Source: Eledone cirrhosa
Lineage: Eukaryota
Assembly: GCA_964016885.1 (NCBI GenBank)
Contig: OZ024748.1
Location: 15,872,001 to 15,936,000, forward strand
DNA: 64,000 nt
Direction of reading: 5' to 3'
Below, in pieces: positions 54,755 to 63,945 of the stretch (its first letter is position 1; every line of letters starts with the position of its first letter). The position numbers were made by a program, and so were the translations under genes. The notes beneath the pieces were generated by a model. It searched no databases, was not told the DNA's origin, and saw nothing but the letters and a program-made list of their open reading frames with translations.

Positions 54755-55816
54755 TACATACCTAAATGCCATAACACAGCAATTCACCATAATAAACTTA
54801 ACACTAGAACTAGAAATACCTTAGCATATAGCCAGATTCGCCGGAATTTTGGCAGTAACAGCACCTATACAGAGAAATGTAATGGTGGCAGCGGCCTGCT
54901 CCCCACTCCTAGTAGCAAACTAAAAATCAACCCTAGAATAGGAATGAGAAATGGGATGACAAATAACAAATCCCCAGGTAATAATAACCCTAGGAAGGCC
55001 CCTACCAACTCCACTAGAACCCCTAGAAGGAATAGACCTAGAACTATCACCTGGCTCAATCCCCCATTCTCTTCTCATGTAGCCACTAATATCCCTAAAC
55101 ACTTCTTCTCTATCCTATCTAAACATTCCCCCCCCCCCCAACCATAGATATTACAAACTCTTTAATAAAAATAACATTAAAATCTCATTCTCCACAACAC
55201 ATTCAGTAACCATCGTAAACAAAGACAGTATAACTCCCACACCGCGGTACCACCACCCCTATCAAATACACCACGCCACTACACCAATAATTACTCTAGT
55301 AGCACACGTCCCCCATCTAATCCTTCTAGCACTGACCTACCGCTTAGGTTAAACTACCCTACTCTCACTAACTGCAGAAGCAACTACAACTGCCGTTACC
55401 CTAATGCATGCCCATTAAATGGACACTGCCTGACACCCAACATTATCTATAGGTGCACGGTTAAAACTGCTTCGAATACCAGCTCTTATATCGGGTCTAC
55501 CTCTAACCTTTTTAAGGTCCGCTATAACGCGCACTCTTTTTCCTTCCGAGACCCTAGCAACAGATGTTCGCCATCTCTAGCTAGGCTCAATAAAAACCTT
55601 AAATTAAGCAACGTTCAACACTCACTAAAATGGGATATCGTGGCTAGGGCCCAACCGTTCAATGGACGAAGAAAATCTTGTGATCTCTGTATTACAGAAG
55701 CATATTACATAACTCTATCACAACCTCTACCGATTAACGATAGAACGGAGGTAACTATTAGCTGTCAACATCGAAGGGCTAATTCCTTCGCCAATAGAAT
55801 ATTTGACCCAACTTAG
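54755..55816 (+). pseudogene. Penelope-like element (Naiad-type): RT-thumb linker + GIY-YIG endonuclease, 5'-truncated, two frameshifts
   Basis: RTITWLNPPFSSHVATNI; HRYYKLFNKNNIKISFS; frame 55199-55816 gives NCRYPNACPLNGHCLTPNIIYRC...SYIGSTSNLFKVRYNAH..SF...KWDIV...CDLCITE...INDRTEVTISCQH. Confidence 0.88.
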
Positions 55817-56663: not shown

Positions 56664-57133
56664 GCAGACTGGGTAAAAAAATAATGGTTGCCAGGAGATG
56701 AAGGGAGCCCACCTATATATAGAATGCTATCATTTAATGTTTATAATGAATAAATTATTGTTGCCTGTGTATATATTTTGGTGAGTTTATTGATTGAATA
56801 TCCGTTTTTATGTTCGGTTTCACTAGCTATTTGCTTCTCATATTTGAATCTTGAATTCTGCTCAGAGCCGTCTTAACAGAAATGAGACCAGTATATAAAC
56901 CAGTGCCCCTTCACTCTCCTAGCTGTTTATTCGGCACTACAACGTTATTAGCTGTCAGTCGAAGCAGTCGATGAAAGCAGGCGAAGGTGACATCATTCGT
57001 CAAACATCGTTTATTTCCGTATTACTACCACGCGTAAGTGGAGTTACTTAAATGAATTTTTTTTTTTCACGCGTTTTTTATTTTTTTTATTAAAGCATAT
57101 CGATGTAAGTGGAGTTGCTTAAATGAAAATATA

Positions 57134-57152
57134 GGTGGCCCTTAAAAGGGCC
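57134..57152 (-). other. Histone-3'-type stem-loop motif GGCCCT-TTTA-AGGGCC-ACC
   Basis: 6-bp stem, 4-nt loop and ACC flank on the minus strand; identical copy at 57281-57299. Confidence 0.6.
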
Positions 57153-57761
57153 AAATTAGAAAACAAATCATGGTTATCAAATAAATTGGATTTAATCATT
57201 TATATTTTCATAGTCATGGTTATCAATGTAGAAAACAAGTCATTTTCACCAACAGTGGAGTTAACTTAAATGAAAATATAGGTGGCCCTTAAAAGGGCCA
57301 AATTGTTAATGGAATTAACCATCGCGATCTTTCCATCGCTACCGTTACTACAGCAGATACCATCAATCTCCATGGGGACTGTCTCATGTCTCCATGCTAT
57401 TGAATAAGGTTGGCGAAAAAAATTTGTTTTCTAAACATTTCTTCATAAAGGGTTGGTGAAAAAAATTTGATAACCATAAATTTGTTTTCTAATTTGGCCC
57501 TTTTAAGTTAACTCCACTGTTGGTGAAAATGACTTGTTTTCTACATTAATAACCATGACTATGAAAATATAGTTTATGGTATTAGCTGTCAGAAGTAACT
57601 CCACTATTGGTGAAAATTCATTTAAGTTCATGGTATTAGCTGTCAGATGTAACTCCACTGTTGGTGAAAATGACTTGTTTTCTACATTGATAACCATGAC
57701 TAAATCCAATTTATTTGATAACCATGATTGTTTTCTAATTAACTGAAATGTTTTCTAATTT

Positions 57762-57780
57762 GGCCCTTTCAAGGGCCACC
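57762..57780 (+). other. Histone-3'-type stem-loop motif GGCCCT-TTCA-AGGGCC-ACC
   Basis: Mirror copy in the right arm of the foldback, with a loop variant. Confidence 0.55.
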
Positions 57781-59519
57781 TATATTTTCATTTAAGTAAC
57801 TCCACTTACATCGATATGCTTTAATAAAAAAAAAAAAAAACGCGTGATATTTTCATTTAAGTAACTCCACTTACATCTATATGCTTTAATAAAAAAAATT
57901 AAAAAACGCGTAAAAAAAAAATTTCATTTAAGTAACTCCACTTACGCGTGGTAGTAATACGGAAATAAACGATGTTTTGCTTTCATCGGCTGCTTCGACT
58001 GACAGCTAATAGCGTTGTAGTGCCAATATATCTAGGAGATGAATAAAATAAAAACAACTAGGACTGATATTGTCAATACTAATACGTTTTATCTTTTAAG
58101 ATAGTTTATAAAGCAGTTATAATTCTATTAGACAAAGCAAGCTGACAATACGAATAAAAATAAGTGAGAAAGTAAGAAAACGGATAATTTATTTTATGAC
58201 ATCCATATCCGAGACGAGTGGACTTGTAAAAACATTTACTTTTAAGTGTTAGGGTTAGTTAGAATTTTGAAAGCGACATTTGTTTTTCCTACGAATTGTT
58301 TTTGAACGACTGTCTTCAAAACCGTCGTAAATTACGCCTTTTCTATGGTTCCACACTCTTGAACGTTATTACACCTGTCTAGGAAACAGGTATAATAAAT
58401 AAATTAAAATGAAAAATTTGTTAAAATAAAGTATGATAAAGTGTTGTATTTTAATGAAGGACATTCACAGTTTTTTTTACTCGCTGTAGTTGTCAAATAT
58501 AATTAGAAGTTTGCTAAATAATAATCCCTTTTGACCACAAGTATCCAAAACAGTGATGATCAATAGAACAAAACAAATTGGTGGGTTGTGCGGCCGTTTG
58601 TCGCACTTGTTGGTGAATTGTCCCTCCCACTTTTTCTTCATGTTTAAGGTTTTCATCTCTCTTATGCCTTTAAGTGTATATATTTATATTATGTTTGTTT
58701 TCGGTCTCATATACAACCGTAAATAAAACTGAACATTACTTTTTTTCTCTGTTGTATATCTTAAATAAATTAATAAAACGCAGTTGGAAAATAAACTATA
58801 GTTATCCAATATACACGAGTTTCTGTATAGTGAGATTGAATTCTCTCTTAAAGCCACTGGTACTGTAATAAAACACTCTTTGGAATATATTTTACTGTTT
58901 TGCTTTATAACGTACATGTTGCCTTGTAATAGCTTTGTAAATATTAAAACAATTCGGTTTCAAAACCCATACACAGAGTACGTTTGTAAATAATATTTAA
59001 AAGGAAACAAAACAGAGGAATTAAATTACGTGGTTCCCTTATCGAATATAAACATTTCTCAGTGAAAAAAGTATTTGTATTGATGAAACTTTAACTGTCA
59101 TGCATAAATTCAGTCAACAAGACACTGGCACACATATATATATATACTACGAAAACTGTCTTCCTACCTTAAAGATGACGTACTCCTATATCCTTCACAT
59201 ATGGTAAAATAAAATCCACTTTGATGTCTTTGTTGTTTTATTGTCGTGTAAATGACGTTTAATGTATATATGTATGTTTGTATAGAGTGCAAAACACCAG
59301 GGGTGTTGCCTCGTACTACCAAAGGTTAAAATTGAAAACGTCTTATAGTGTCTTGTGCATGTATGTATAATTGTATATAGTAAACCAACGAACCAGTTGA
59401 GGAAAGAATCGGTTGTCTCGCCACCCGACATTTGTCCACGTATAGTGTTTTGTATGTATGTATAATTGTATATAGTGGCCAACAGCCTGAACCGGTTAAG
59501 GTTGGTTATGTATGTGTAG

Positions 59520-59537: not shown

Positions 59538-59589
59538 CTTAAGGCGGACGATGGTCGTCAGTCATCCCGTCTAATTGGATATTGTTTAC

Positions 59590-60018
59590 TGGCACACCTC
59601 TCTCGCCTGCCAAAACAACGTCCAAATTATTTTGGCAAATATAGTGGACACCGGCTCTTTGGAGCAAATTGCTGCTTCCGCGGATCGAATCGTAGAATTT
59701 TCTAAAAAGGCTACCGCCTCGGACTCGCGTGTCGCTTCCTCTCATTTGAATCAGCCCGTCTCGACACGCGAGGAAGCCATGTTGAAGGCTATTGACGCTT
59801 TGACGCAGCAAGTCGCTCGATTGTGCAGGGAGAATAGGCCCTATCCCCGGCGGCCTAAGAGTCGTTCGCGTTCTTTCGCGACTCCACGTCGGCGTACAAC
59901 TTCGCCCTCCAGCAATCCATTATTTTGCTGGTATCATACCACCTTCGCGGATAAGGCAAAACATTGCCGGCTTCCATGTAAATATTCAGCTTCGGGAAAT
60001 GTAGATCAGAGTCACTAA
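59590..60018 (+). pseudogene. Ty3/gypsy gag C-terminal half
   Basis: NNVQIILA..LEQIAASADRI, RS-rich tract, CWYHTTFADKAKHCRLPC knuckle-like motif, ends SGN at the gag/pol -1 frameshift region. Confidence 0.85.
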
Positions 60019-60020
60019 AG

Positions 60021-60760
60021 GCGGCAAGTGAACTCTGCGAGACACAACAGAACCGCCATTTCTTCATAGAGGACCTCCTGCCTGGAAGAGCCTTCCTCGT
60101 AGACACAGGAGCTTCGTGCAGTATTTGGCCTGTCAATTGTATGACAGTAACTCCTCCTGAGTCATCAATGAATCTATAAGCTGTCAGTCATTCGCCGATA
60201 CAAACTTTTGGACAAATCTCGCTTCCTCTGCAATTCAGAAATCTTCGACGAGAATTCAAATGGATTTTTACGGTCGCTGACTTGGGAGCGGATTTTCTAC
60301 ACCACTTTACATTGACGGTGGACGTCCGTGGCAGATGCCTAGTAGACGAGATTACTGGTTTTTCTCTTCGTGGCCAGAAAGCTAATTTTCCAACAGTTAG
60401 CCCGACCTTTTTCATCGCTAATGCTGGGAATCCCTATCATGCATTGTTGAATTATTTCCCACAGCTTACTCGGGGAAATTTTCGAGTTGTCGAACCGACT
60501 CACACAACGGAGCATTTTATCTCTACAACTGGCGCCCCAGTGTCCTCACGTCCTCGTCGCTTGCCTGCGGACAAATTGAAGGCAGCACGGCCCGAGTTCG
60601 ACCACATGCTGCAGCTAGGCATAATTCGCCCCTCTACGAGCCATTGGGCTTCTCCGTTGCACATGGTACCCAAGACTTCTGGCGACTGGAGACCCACTGG
60701 GGATTATAGGAAGTTAAATGCTATAACTGTCCCGGATAGATATCCTATTCCACACCTAAT
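60021..60760 (+). pseudogene. Ty3/gypsy pol: aspartic protease and start of RT; one internal stop, 3'-truncated
   Basis: [68 protein letters not shown]; TAA at ~60177. Confidence 0.92.
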
Positions 60761-61291
60761 TGCAGAATTAGTTCCATAAGATAACAGGATTACGACGAAC
60801 ACAAACAGAGAATAGAAAAGAGAGGACCAATTTGATTCAGGAATGGCCTGCCAATTCAGTGTTATTGTAACGGCAAACCATCCTCGAATATGTATATGAA
60901 ACTATTTATATTCATACATATATATATATACATATACGTACACAATCACATATTATACATATATGTATGTTATTATATTTGGGGATGGTTATGTTGCAGT
61001 ATTGACAATAAAAATCACACACACCATATGATTTTCATTTTATGTTTATTATTAGTTCGACAAATTTCTTTCGTCACACATTCTGTGACCCTTTAATTGA
61101 TTCTTTGTTTTCTTTTGTGGCTCCTTTTCTTTTTGGTCTTAATTTGTTATTCCATCTTGTCTTTTTTATTTGATCATATACATACATATATACAAAATGA
61201 ATACGTACGTGTGTTTTTTCTCAGGGTATTTTTCCATTCCTTCCTCAACTCATTCGTTATCTTTCTATTTCGTCTTATATTCGTCATTCTA

Positions 61292-61328
61292 TCTTCTGAT
61301 GAAGAATTAGTGTCCGAAAAATTAAAAC
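61292..61328 (+). ncRNA. Degenerate minimal hammerhead-like motif in a probable PLE pLTR remnant
   Basis: CTGATGA 61296-61302 ... GAAA 61316-61319; stems I and III poorly paired; downstream 61335-61361 has an inverted copy at ~61483-61507. Confidence 0.3.
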
Positions 61329-62019
61329 ACATTTCCCTCTATTTCAAGCGTTAAACTAATATATTGTTTTAATTGTACCATTTGTTTTACTTTGTTTGGT
61401 ATTTGTTTAATTTAAAAAAAAAAATATATATATATAAGTAAAAAGAAATAACAAATAATGACATAGAACAACGAAAAAAAAGTTTATTAGTTTAACGCAT
61501 GAAATAGTACGAAAAGGGTTATATATATATATACATGAAGTTAACAATTGAATTTCATGGAAATTTAGAATTTATCATATGAAAATATATATAATTTTGA
61601 AAATCTGAAAATCCAAACGTTATATCAACATTAAATCTAACTGCTTCCATTTTCTGCTATTTTCAAATGTTGCTTTTGTGGAGGTGATTAAATCAAAATG
61701 AAAATACCCAACAGATACACAACGTAACTGTTTTCGTTGTGTAGACAGAAAGATCAACATACACTTATCAACGAGGTGTTGTAGAGATAGATGCGTATGG
61801 TCTGTTTTCCTACCATTTCGTGAAATATAATGTATCAGGTAGAAAATAAATTAAATATTGGTAATGCAATTTAATTTTTCTGTTTTACATCTAAAATAGA
61901 AAATAATATATTTTTGGATATAAATATTTGATACTTTAGATAGAATTTTTGAATTTTTGAAAAATTTCACTTTCTTCTCTTCCGTTCCTTTTCCCTGTCT
62001 ATCTCTCTCTCTCTTTCTT

Positions 62020-62052
<33 letters not shown>

Positions 62053-62094
62053 ATTTATATTCATACATACACACACACACACATATATATATAT

Positions 62095-62126
<32 letters not shown>

Positions 62127-62579
62127 GGGGGATAGATAAATAGATAGATAGTAAGAGAGATAGATAGATATCGTTAAAATTCAGCCTTACTCATTCTCAT
62201 TTGATGGGATGTGTGTCTGATTAAGATAATAAACACATATCTACTTTATATAATATTTTCGAGATCCTTCAATTCTCTACCATTTTCATTGTTGCAATAG
62301 TTTTAATTACTTTATTTTTATTATTTTTTATTAATTTATAATAGACATGTGAGTATAACATATAACCAATGGCTGACTTAAGAAGCATTCGGAAATTTTG
62401 AAATCTGAAATATGTGCATCCCAACACAAATGACCATAATAATTGTTTCTACTTTTGGCACAATTATCCCAGTGCATTACTGGTACTTTATTTTATCGAC
62501 CCTGGAAGGATGAAAGGCAAAGTTAACCCTTGCCAATCCACTACTCTGCAAATAATAACAACAACAATAATGATAATTT

Positions 62580-63515
62580 TTATTATTTCTTTATTGGCCC
62601 CAAGGGCTGAGATATAGGGGATAATACAAAAACAACAACAGAGGGAGTTTACAGAGAAAATTGAGTAAAAATGTTTTTAACAAATAATACATTACAAACT
62701 ACAACAAAGAAAAATTCTCCAATAGTGGGAACCCCACAAATCCTAAAGCAGCTGACGCTCCCAGAGCACTCTAAGAAGGCTCCCTCTCTCCTCTCCAGAT
62801 TAGCTAGTCTAGAGGCGCATGTTCAGAGTAGGCCTTTTCAAATGGGTCATTCTCGCTACATTCTCCCATCTTATAACAAATATACTGGGGGACAACACTC
62901 CTCTCTCCACTCTCACCTTTCTTTCCATGTGGAATTTGAAAAAATTGATGAGGGATTGGCCAAAGAGAAAACTGTTTGTCTTCAGTCCTTTTAGTATCAG
63001 CCAACACACAACTTCTTTTGCTACTGCCATTAAGCAAAAGGAAACTGCCTGCCTTTCCCGTACAAAAGAAGACGGTGGAGCGATCTTCACAATAGACTCG
63101 GTCAATAGCCAAATTCGTCCTACACACAATAACAGCTGTTTGACTTCACAAGTCAGTAATGCACTCGACAATGGGACTGGACCAGTGCATGGAGAACAGT
63201 TTCCTCGCTCTGTGCATCTCTCAGGCAGGTCCGTCTGACTGCACTCCCGTGTCTGTAAAGTTTAGCTCGAACTGGCAGTGCACCCCAGTAGCACTGCTTA
63301 GTGAGGAATTTCTGGAAGTTATCCATAGTCCTCAGCTCAAACGTTCTCTGGAACAGACTAGTCAGTTTGATTTCGTTGATGTCCAGAGCCTTGCCAAGAG
63401 AATTATCGCACATGCCCATCGGAAAACCTATAAAGAACTCTGGGGTGGAATTTCCACTGACTACATTGCCCGACTCATAAGAGGGCAGAGAGCACACAGG
63501 AACATTCCAGATGCC
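62580..63515 (-). mobile_element. L1/Tx1-like LINE 3' end (zf-RVT region of ORF2 + 3'UTR + AATAAA/A-rich tail), degenerate
   Basis: CYWGALPVRAKLYRHG...TCLR...EETVLHALVQ (decayed CxxC..ET..H..C); AVAKEVVCW; ERKVRVER...RW; minus-strand AATAAA at ~62589-62594. Confidence 0.8.
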
Positions 63516-63519
63516 AATA

Positions 63520-63945
63520 ATAGTTTCTGATTTTAGCACAAGGCCAACACTTTCAGAGAAGGGGAAAGTTGATTAAATCGAGCCCGGTGCATTACTGGTG
63601 CTTTATTTTATCGACCCCCCCCCCCCACACATCCCTGCAAGAATGAAAGACAAAGCTAACCTTGTCGTAACTCTGTGCTGCAGAGTATGATGTCTGACGC
63701 TCTACCAATACTGCCAATCCACTACACTTAAATAATTGTTTCTACTTTAGGCACAAGGCCAGCAATTTGAAGGGGAGGGGAAAGTCGATTAAATCGTGCA
63801 TTACTGGTACTTTATTTTATCGATTTTAAGGATGAAAGGCAAAGCTAAACTCGGCGGGATATGAACTCAGAATGTAAAGAGTCGTAACCCTATGCCACAA
63901 AGCATATTGTCCAACACTCTACCAATACTACCAATCACCTACCCT
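63520..63945 (-). mobile_element. Two family A SINE copies (long variant); a further deleted copy lies at ~62438-62540
   Basis: Reverse-complement core and boxes. Confidence 0.8.

Follow-up and report, generated by a model that had tools for sequence, protein, structure and literature searches.

The 64,000-nt stretch of Eledone cirrhosa DNA analysed here (the window) contains a foldback element that is almost certainly a gene-less derivative of an octopus lineage of Merlin (IS1016-type) transposons that captured the 3′ end of a histone H4 gene. The hairpin that it carries is likely a passenger in the window copy. Histone-type hairpins also follow the transposase genes of Merlins from other organisms, and comparison of these sequences suggests that in some Merlins the transposase mRNA probably uses the hairpin as a histone-type 3′ end.

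The window contains a foldback element with outward-facing histone-type hairpins

An original prediction, made from the letters of the window, described an inverted-repeat structure at 56910..58043 bearing outward-facing histone-type stem-loops. A 19-nt histone-type pattern was matched exactly three times in the window, at 57134-57152 (-), 57281-57299 (-) and 57762-57780 (+). All three matches lie at the predicted sites and face outward, and the pattern had no match in 100 shuffled versions of the window. The inverted-repeat structure is also real, with arms of 47 nt at 96%, 131 nt at 92% and 104 nt at 95% identity, and its true ends lie slightly inside the predicted limits (Table 1). The predicted half-copy of the hairpin is present in the sequence and appears to have lost its 3′ arm by deletion between two short TTAAG repeats. 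The supposed ~100-bp unique centre proved to be 19 codons of the parent transposase together with an inverted piece of the parent 5′ leader. As predicted, the window holds no histone ORF, and none was found within 10 kb to its left or 40 kb to its right.

Comparison with the Rfam Histone3 model, a check proposed with the prediction, held for one hairpin (37.0 bits against a gathering score of 34) and failed for the other two (32.8 and 25.2 bits). The minus-strand copies and the parent have a 6-bp stem, a 4-nt loop, G-C at the second pair, U-A at the top pair and U at the first and third loop positions. The loop of the plus-strand hairpin is TTCA, in which the conserved third U is gone.

Table 1. 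Features of the foldback element, in window coordinates
Feature	Position	Strand	Evidence
Whole element, 1092 bp, foldback (MITE-like) non-autonomous Merlin derivative (assignment almost certain)	56933..58024	.	Inverted arms and ends
Left end: TIR starting GG and subterminal region	56933..57045	+	94% identical to end of autonomous element L070
H4-derived block copy 1 (stem-loop 57137-57152 and downstream flank)	57091..57152	-	95% over 63 nt to H4 gene; 32.8 bits
H4-derived block copy 2 (stem-loop 57284-57299)	57254..57299	-	98% over 46 nt to H4; 37.0 bits
Transposase ORF remnant, 19 codons	57306..57364	+	Approximately residues 10-28 of parent transposase P0001
Inverted piece of parent 5′ leader	57369..57484	-	80% identical to L070 positions 253-384
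Half hairpin, 3′ arm missing	57496..57507	+	Sequence
H4-derived block copy 3, loop TTCA	57762..57823	+	95% over 63 nt to H4; 25.2 bits
Duplicated H4 downstream flank without stem	57847..57888	+	95% over 43 nt
Right end: subterminal region and TIR finishing CC	57934..58024	-	Inverted-arm comparison

The element derives from an octopus Merlin family

Comparison of the arms with the whole genome, which had been suggested as a way to find an autonomous partner, did identify one. The partner is a Merlin in which the same ends enclose an intronless 302-aa transposase ORF (PF12762 DDE_Tnp_IS1595, E 6.7e-19), whose motifs put the catalytic triad at D151, D212 and E249. None of the partners guessed beforehand (Helitron, MULE, foldback or Polinton) was right. 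A Helitron, MULE, Polinton or Galileo-type parent is ruled out by the same ends flanking a Merlin transposase and by the 8-bp target-site duplications. The closest named proteins to the transposase belong to Octopus bimaculoides and O. sinensis (66-85% identity for the top five), and O. bimaculoides is among the species richest in Merlin proteins, with 191 (PMC8101967).

Merlins are defined by terminal inverted repeats (TIRs) of 24-462 bp that start with 5′-GG and by an 8- or 9-bp target-site duplication (PMC8101967). The window element begins with GG and finishes with CC, and its outer arms match over 47 nt at 96% and continue inward. The octopus family thus shares with the Merlin superfamily, as described in PMC8101967, the GG termini, 8-bp duplications, a single DDE_Tnp_IS1595 transposase and the presence of non-autonomous derivatives.

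A genome-wide DNA search (3.0 Gb) returned at least 398 matches to the window element, with 40 of 1838 candidates scored. The 28-nt hairpin string occurs exactly 489 times and the terminal repeat pattern 539 times, which indicates that the genome contains a few hundred elements. Of 38 two-ended copies, 14 had an exact 8-bp duplication and 18 had one with at most one mismatch. The duplication was also exact in four of five giant derivatives of 24-28 kb, in one case within a TA run. The window copy has no intact duplication, five of the eight flank bases being different, and no partner end for it was located within 10 kb to the left or 40 kb to the right of the window. Loss of the duplication is common among the copies of this rearrangement-prone family.

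The hairpin was captured from a histone H4 gene

The hairpin and the next 47 nt are identical at 62 of 64 positions to the 3′ end of a single H4 gene (G000:C7:67.458 Mb), in which the stem lies 34 nt behind the stop. The same block matches three H4 paralogues at 83-87%. In L322, a sister foldback between Merlin ends, the last eight H4 codons and the stop are still present, together with the 3′ UTR and a hairpin that has its native 5′ flank. Pieces of H4 are also carried by the sister elements L210, L217 and L304-L308, and as much as 570 nt from downstream of the same H4 gene is found in sister MITEs whose terminal repeat is of a variant form (94 exact matches). The full-length sisters L179 and L195, 87% and 83% identical in their transposase DNA, have no H4 block. 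In these sisters the subterminal motif that the block interrupts is unbroken, and comparison with them reveals one or two shared bases at each block junction. The hairpin was likewise absent from all 34 loci of other octopus Merlins. Together, the H4-bearing sisters and the block-less L179 and L195 show that the direction of capture was from H4 to the transposon, in agreement with the predicted capture of a histone 3′ signal by a mobile element.

L322 and the 62/64 match with a single H4 gene rule out chance likeness of a DNA palindrome. The idea that exactly the signal was inserted in one clean step was given up, as the sisters carry a far longer H4 piece. No less than 663 nt of a single H4 locus was captured, and different descendants of the capture hold different pieces of it. 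The abundant lineage kept only a 63-nt block, from the first stem base onward, in both arms. The 5′ adenines of the histone hairpin are retained in L210 and L322.

Most likely, an ancestral Merlin inserted beside or behind the H4 gene and picked up its 3′ flank, a step for which gap repair and template switching are candidate mechanisms. The H4 block would later have been trimmed and copied to the other arm, possibly by template switching at the hairpin, and descendants would have fixed the hairpin block in their arms, giving rise to gene-less derivatives such as the window copy. The length of the capture and the differing pieces kept by its descendants are also what would be expected if Merlins insert by histone genes and repeatedly take the nearest flank, the hairpin being idle in all of them. 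We consider an idle hairpin in every lineage rather unlikely, on the evidence from other organisms presented below.

The family is enriched beside histone genes

To place the capture in its genomic setting, 40 windows of 10 kb (400 kb) around histone matches were examined for the octopus Merlin family. These contained six exact hairpin 28-mers and five exact terminal repeats, against 0.065 and 0.072 expected from the genome-wide counts, an enrichment of ~70-90-fold beside histone genes. Eight insertions were recognised, one of them a lone 42-nt end known by pattern and short alignment only. They fall into five clusters on two chromosomes, and none is farther than 1.8 kb from a histone gene; one is 61 nt behind an H3 stem and another is between an H2A stop and its stem. 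No family insertion was found in ten windows around hairpin-less histone variants and pseudogenes, and there were no family matches in 200 kb around actin/U2 genes or in 200 kb of arbitrary windows (contigs C1-C4). The family was present in 5/40 histone windows and 0/45 control windows (P = 0.02), the controls holding fewer promoters. For the three exact-match clusters, a generous expectation of 0.14 gave P ~4e-4.

Such an excess, in clusters on two chromosomes, would follow if the H4 piece steered insertion to histone loci via proteins or RNA gathered there. A precedent is the steering of P elements by engrailed DNA, in which mobile DNA likewise comes to lie near the gene it carries, but there the elements are engineered vectors and the DNA is upstream regulatory sequence (PMC3261919). 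Homing of this kind is improbable for the octopus family. The great majority of the few hundred copies are elsewhere in the genome, the control windows are poorer in promoters than the histone windows, and an insertion bias may predate the capture and explain it. Furthermore, two Merlin-type MITE families without H4 sequence also adjoin histone genes, with six copies in the 400 kb of histone windows and two in the 200 kb of actin/U2 flanks, a weak comparison since both families were first noticed inside histone windows. No whole copy of either was found in the 200 kb of arbitrary windows. The presence of these MITEs near histone genes suggests that a general bias preceding the capture is the simpler cause.

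A general bias would also suit a hairpin that is carried passively: the eight insertions and, more weakly, the H4-less MITEs place Merlins where histone flanks can be picked up, and insertion by histone genes alone could yield repeated capture. Densovirus integrations near tapeworm histone clusters resemble the octopus Merlins in their position, and the available text of PMC6880638 reports proximity alone.

The octopus hairpin is degraded

In the octopus parent the hairpin is in the sense orientation 137 nt behind the transposase stop, with AATAAA ahead of it at +72, and a second copy upstream of the ORF faces away. Among the 30 best transposase loci, 24 have a sense hairpin behind the ORF, at 108-146 nt in 17 (two locus pairs overlap). 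The stem of histone genes is 25-60 nt from the stop, with a median of 30 (bioRxiv 10.64898/2026.10.14.759114). Host histone hairpins (n=57) have A at -3 in 56/57 and A at -2 in 51/57, and the octopus element has T at both. This bears out the non-A-rich 5′ flank noted in the original prediction, the element having TTT where the host hairpins have A. Two 5′ adenines are cited as required for wild-type SLBP affinity (PMC10388802). In addition, the stem of the octopus element folds to 7 bp rather than 6, through an extra U-A pair.

The lack of a purine-rich downstream element, which had been listed as a weakness, turned out to be no defect. In 54/57 host histone genes a W-W-G-T core replaces the vertebrate-type element, and the 47 nt downstream of the octopus hairpin are those of a real host H4 gene, including the W-W-G-T core at host spacing. 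The host genome encodes an SLBP gene. No RF00066 match for U7 snRNA was obtained in the genome, in a search that was equally silent on its controls.

We compared 85 copies found by flanking anchors. Substitutions were present at 39/850 stem G/C sites and 16/425 flank G/C sites, and no compensatory stem pair was observed. The suggested test, that the stem-loop should be more conserved than its flanks, therefore failed among these copies, though inserted copies are expected to drift. The proposal that the window element uses the signal was not borne out: it has no ORF to regulate, its 5′ adenines are lost and its stem is no better conserved. Collectively, the lost adenines, the 7-bp stem and the AATAAA ahead of the hairpin are in keeping with an idle passenger, and from its sequence we consider it doubtful that even the octopus parent makes functional use of the hairpin.

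Most copies have the hairpin in each arm, and the hairpin-bearing type of terminal repeat is commoner than the sister type (539 vs 94), as might be expected if the palindrome were a cis-acting transposase binding site or if the copies were SLBP decoys, although such counts are confounded by age. Both roles are very improbable. Full-length sisters that have no hairpin nevertheless have 8-bp duplications (exact in L179, at most one mismatch in L195), as do two giant derivatives in which the far end is short and has no hairpin; the duplications of these giants are exact and non-repetitive. Half-deleted hairpin copies are common. The decoy role, which had been put forward in the original prediction, found no support, and a good decoy would hardly have lost its 5′ adenines.

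Histone-type hairpins follow transposase genes in Merlins of other organisms

Metagenome contigs were scanned at the best 80 of 265 Merlin loci, which form 44 clusters at 75% identity and of which 50 extend 200 nt or more beyond the stop. Four matches were obtained with a permissive hairpin score. Three of these were sense hairpins behind the stop, at 48 nt in L406, 76 nt in L402 and 84 nt in L353 (3/80 loci and 3/44 clusters), each with an AAAAC 5′ flank. The fourth, in L425, was antisense and upstream of the ORF. No hairpin was found behind the stop in the remaining 77 of the best 80 loci. Hairpins of equal strength were absent from simulated sets in 40 rounds and from 400 kb of octopus control DNA. 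The metagenome hairpins had Rfam scores of 24-31 bits (E 4e-3 to 9e-6). Of the 80 loci, 20 were compared with Rfam at the gathering score and none of these matched, the non-octopus hairpins as a whole scoring 22-32 bits, below 34. L406 has an intact 296-aa ORF and a hairpin enclosed by perfect 32-nt terminal repeats, with neither AATAAA nor ATTAAA between the stop and the end of the element; its closest named relatives are animal proteins at 44-45%. Two queries of viral contigs returned no relative.

A scan of a genome collection, intended as a negative control, produced hairpin matches in 3/80 loci. These loci, L436, L437 and L439, are Merlins of eukaryote type with introns; the records that contain them are filed under bacteria, and one is titled as a sponge symbiont. 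L436, with terminal repeats of 121 nt and an exact 8-bp duplication, carries one hairpin at 43 nt and another at 96 nt. The hairpin is 45 nt behind the stop in L437 and 147 nt behind it in L439, which has 64-nt terminal repeats. The right terminal repeat of L437 was not located, nor were those of L353 and L402, so the hairpin could be host flank in these three. A search of eight such records added L521, with a hairpin 71 nt behind the stop within a partial inverted repeat, and L518, with no hairpin. L459 also has no hairpin and contains AATAAA.

In this sponge-type clade, whose proteins are 63-77% identical, the hairpin is thus found 43-147 nt behind the stop in four of six members. The hairpin block is the sole alignable part of the 3′ UTRs, at 74% over 66 nt, and includes a compensatory change. 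A host H3 gene in one such record carries a hairpin of matching form. Introns are present in the sponge-type Merlins, whereas replication-dependent histone genes typically have none, and in these records hairpins of similar form also follow other non-histone sequences.

Overall, a histone-type hairpin follows the transposase stop by 43-147 nt in seven non-octopus Merlins, and in no fewer than four of these it is enclosed by the terminal repeats. The stem is within the histone range of 25-60 nt in L406 (48), L437 (45) and the first hairpin of L436 (43), and at 71-147 nt in the others. No histone coding sequence was found on the contigs of the hairpin-bearing non-octopus Merlins. In an alignment of ten hairpins, 60/60 cells were paired, three of six pairs had changed on both sides, and the second G-C and top U-A pairs were invariant; the hairpins were chosen by a pattern demanding pairing, which inflates the pairing figures and makes them a supporting description rather than an independent test. 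Three Ptychodera flava rows in the supplement of PMC8101967 start with a canonical hairpin within the first 400 letters given per row.

When the non-octopus loci with a strong match were pooled, the hairpin was sense and within 250 nt behind the stop in 6/7, a target that makes up at most 5.4% of the sequence. With the sponge-type clade counted once the figure was 4/5 (P ~4e-5). This placement, and the survival of the sponge-type hairpin block with a compensatory change where the rest of the 3′ UTR is no longer alignable, argue against a hairpin that is idle in all Merlins. Host-type hairpins that recur in the sense orientation behind stops while their neighbours diverged are most readily accounted for by selection for a histone-type mRNA end in at least some lineages. 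From these sequence patterns we judge it probable that the hairpin is functional in at least one Merlin lineage.

Discussion

Repeated acquisition of the histone 3′ signal by Merlins is the best reading of these results. Quick trees scatter the hairpin-bearing Merlins, requiring four changes for four rows and six changes for seven rows, at least three of them forced by strong branches. On these quick trees a single origin for all hairpin-bearing Merlins is not favoured.

Whether this recurrence amounts to repeated hijacking of the SLBP/U7 pathway, with transposase mRNAs that would be stem-loop-ended, non-polyadenylated and either S-phase-peaked or stored in oocytes, we consider evenly balanced. 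If hijacking has occurred, the octopus family could, with about equal odds for and against, represent a recent capture with its intermediates preserved. SLBP would bind the hairpin and the U7 snRNP would cut behind it. Non-polyadenylated transposase mRNA would then build up in S phase, and perhaps in oocytes, and cut-and-paste transposition in that phase could raise copy number, to the benefit of the element. DNA transposons are known to gain copies when they move during replication (PMC5371812). For Ac/Ds and the clamp-binding transposases, the S-phase gain in copies involves DNA methylation or the sliding clamp (PMC5371812), whereas a histone-type end of the mRNA would influence how much transposase is supplied.

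The Merlin hairpins share with the replication-dependent histone 3′ end (RF00032, SLBP, U7 snRNP) a 6-bp stem, a 4-nt U-rich loop and an ACC flank. They differ from it in following a transposase rather than a histone, and the octopus hairpin also differs in having no 5′ adenines and in being far from the stop. Histone mRNAs are described as the sole known non-polyadenylated cellular mRNAs, and a search for further SLBP targets in HeLa cells yielded none (PMC4604434). As to Merlins, the word 'histone' does not occur in the main text of PMC8101967, and the available text of that paper describes neither capture of host genes, nor a histone 3′ signal following the ORF, nor giants of 24-28 kb. At the level of titles and abstracts, we found no report of a histone stem-loop in a transposon or transposase mRNA, of Merlins associated with histone genes or of DNA transposons that prefer histone genes as targets in the literature covered, most subscription journals and Repbase reports being outside this coverage. 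Similarly, no report of histone-gene stem-loops in octopus or other cephalopods was found, with thin coverage of subscription journals.

Pack-MULEs and other Pack-type transposons carry host gene fragments between their terminal repeats, and these fragments are reshuffled among non-autonomous copies. The octopus family resembles them in having an H4 fragment between terminal repeats that is missing from the related L179 and L195. In contrast to Pack-MULEs, the captured octopus piece is an RNA-processing signal and is found in the 3′ UTR of the autonomous element as well as in both arms.

The Rfam Histone3 matches in the octopus host genome are mostly transposon copies, which calls for caution in annotation. 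If some Merlins do use the hairpin, their transposase mRNAs would be non-histone protein-coding clients of SLBP/U7 and would be largely missed by poly(A) RNA-seq. A transposase message with a histone-type end would break the exclusive hold of histones on non-polyadenylated mRNA and on SLBP, and such an end would be a simple route to time cut-and-paste activity to DNA replication. Should the hairpin be idle, the octopus family still records the stepwise capture, trimming and spread of a host RNA-processing signal to hundreds of sites.

Histone gene 3' signals and Merlin insertions in the octopus genome

In 54 of 57 histone genes of the octopus genome searched (G000; flanking loci L111-L140), we found a W-W-G-T core 16-19 nt 3' of the stem. 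This core replaces the purine-rich element of the vertebrate type. In many of these genes a second, GAT-containing motif lies approximately 35-45 nt 3' of the stem. This arrangement of motifs predicts that the U7 snRNA of this octopus would be divergent. An Rfam search of G000 for U7 snRNA returned no match, as did the controls of that search. Inverted duplications were observed at two of the histone loci, as two H3 genes facing each other (L112) and as a mirrored H3-H4 pair (L132).

Insertions of the octopus Merlin family and of related elements were located at histone genes and at hairpins (see table). At an H2A gene, the inserted copy places its own hairpin, in the sense orientation, ahead of that of H2A, which is displaced to ~690 nt from the stop codon. 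The insertion of a sister Merlin (a related octopus Merlin) into another copy, a single case, lies near the position at which a histone pre-mRNA would undergo cleavage. Among the copies of the two additional MITE families with GG ends, an 8-bp duplication flanks one and a 9-bp duplication another, and one contains part of a Merlin transposase.

Features located in the octopus genome and in the window
Feature	Location	Strand	Source
Giant Merlin-family derivatives (L151-L162, L167-L169)	G000:C1:155.77 Mb, C2:36.34 Mb, C1:304.0 Mb, C2:105.8 Mb, C1:392.47 Mb		
Octopus Merlin-family copy between H2A stop codon and H2A stem-loop	L137:5956-6501		
Sister Merlin inserted directly 3' of the stem of another copy's hairpin	L202:290-1521		
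Two further GG-ended MITE families adjoining histone genes	L120:7539-7921, L121:6183-6631, L116:3873-3982, L122:2290-2763, L129:8528-9217, L137:7170-7664		
420-codon frame with RVT_1 and PHD domains	window:32968-34227	+	Pfam

Giant derivatives, arrays and sequence depth

The giant derivatives measure 23.6-28.4 kb, carry the ends of the Merlin family and are flanked by 8-bp duplications, exact in four of the five. Host repeats, LINE pieces and a tandem unit of 875 bp make up their common cargo, which is for the most part collinear, such that 52-80% of one derivative is covered by others at an identity of at least 82%. Among the terminal-repeat matches listed for G000 there are many more family end pairs separated by 22-48 kb. 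The variant terminal repeat of the sister MITEs has 15 exact matches on one strand of a single contig at 11-18 kb spacing (G000:C1421:13733-200345); this pattern points to an extended tandem array whose unit includes an end of a Merlin.

Depth over the hairpin block of L172 (2477-2623), a locus that also holds a transposase ORF, was ~100 times that over the ORF in one contig run, although depth is not copy number. This ratio is far above the corresponding assembly ratio, and collapsed arrays of histone genes or of the element may explain it.

In the window, the frame with RVT_1 and PHD domains has a combination typical of a LINE. The plus-strand frames at 55181-55813 and 59575-63527 had no match in a Pfam search; they look like fragments of a Penelope-type element and of an LTR retrotransposon.

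Histone-type hairpins in other genome records

In three Ptychodera flava rows (LD354680, LD356481 and LD373974), the extracted Merlin regions start with the same canonical hairpin, accompanied by a purine-rich downstream element; within the first 400 letters of each row, the hairpins stand behind the end of an unassigned ORF (PMC8101967 supplementary file 3).

Animal DNA was found within five records filed as bacterial genomes, comprising tandemly repeated histone genes in G002 (L531, L538, L543, L548) and intron-bearing Merlins in G004, G005, G006 and G008. In records filed this way, hairpins of the sponge type, often paired, also occur 3' of sequences that match neither histones nor Merlins (L533, L534, L535, L539 and L546). 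Those preceding stretches may belong to further kinds of mobile element, or to genes that encode no histone yet have a histone-type end.
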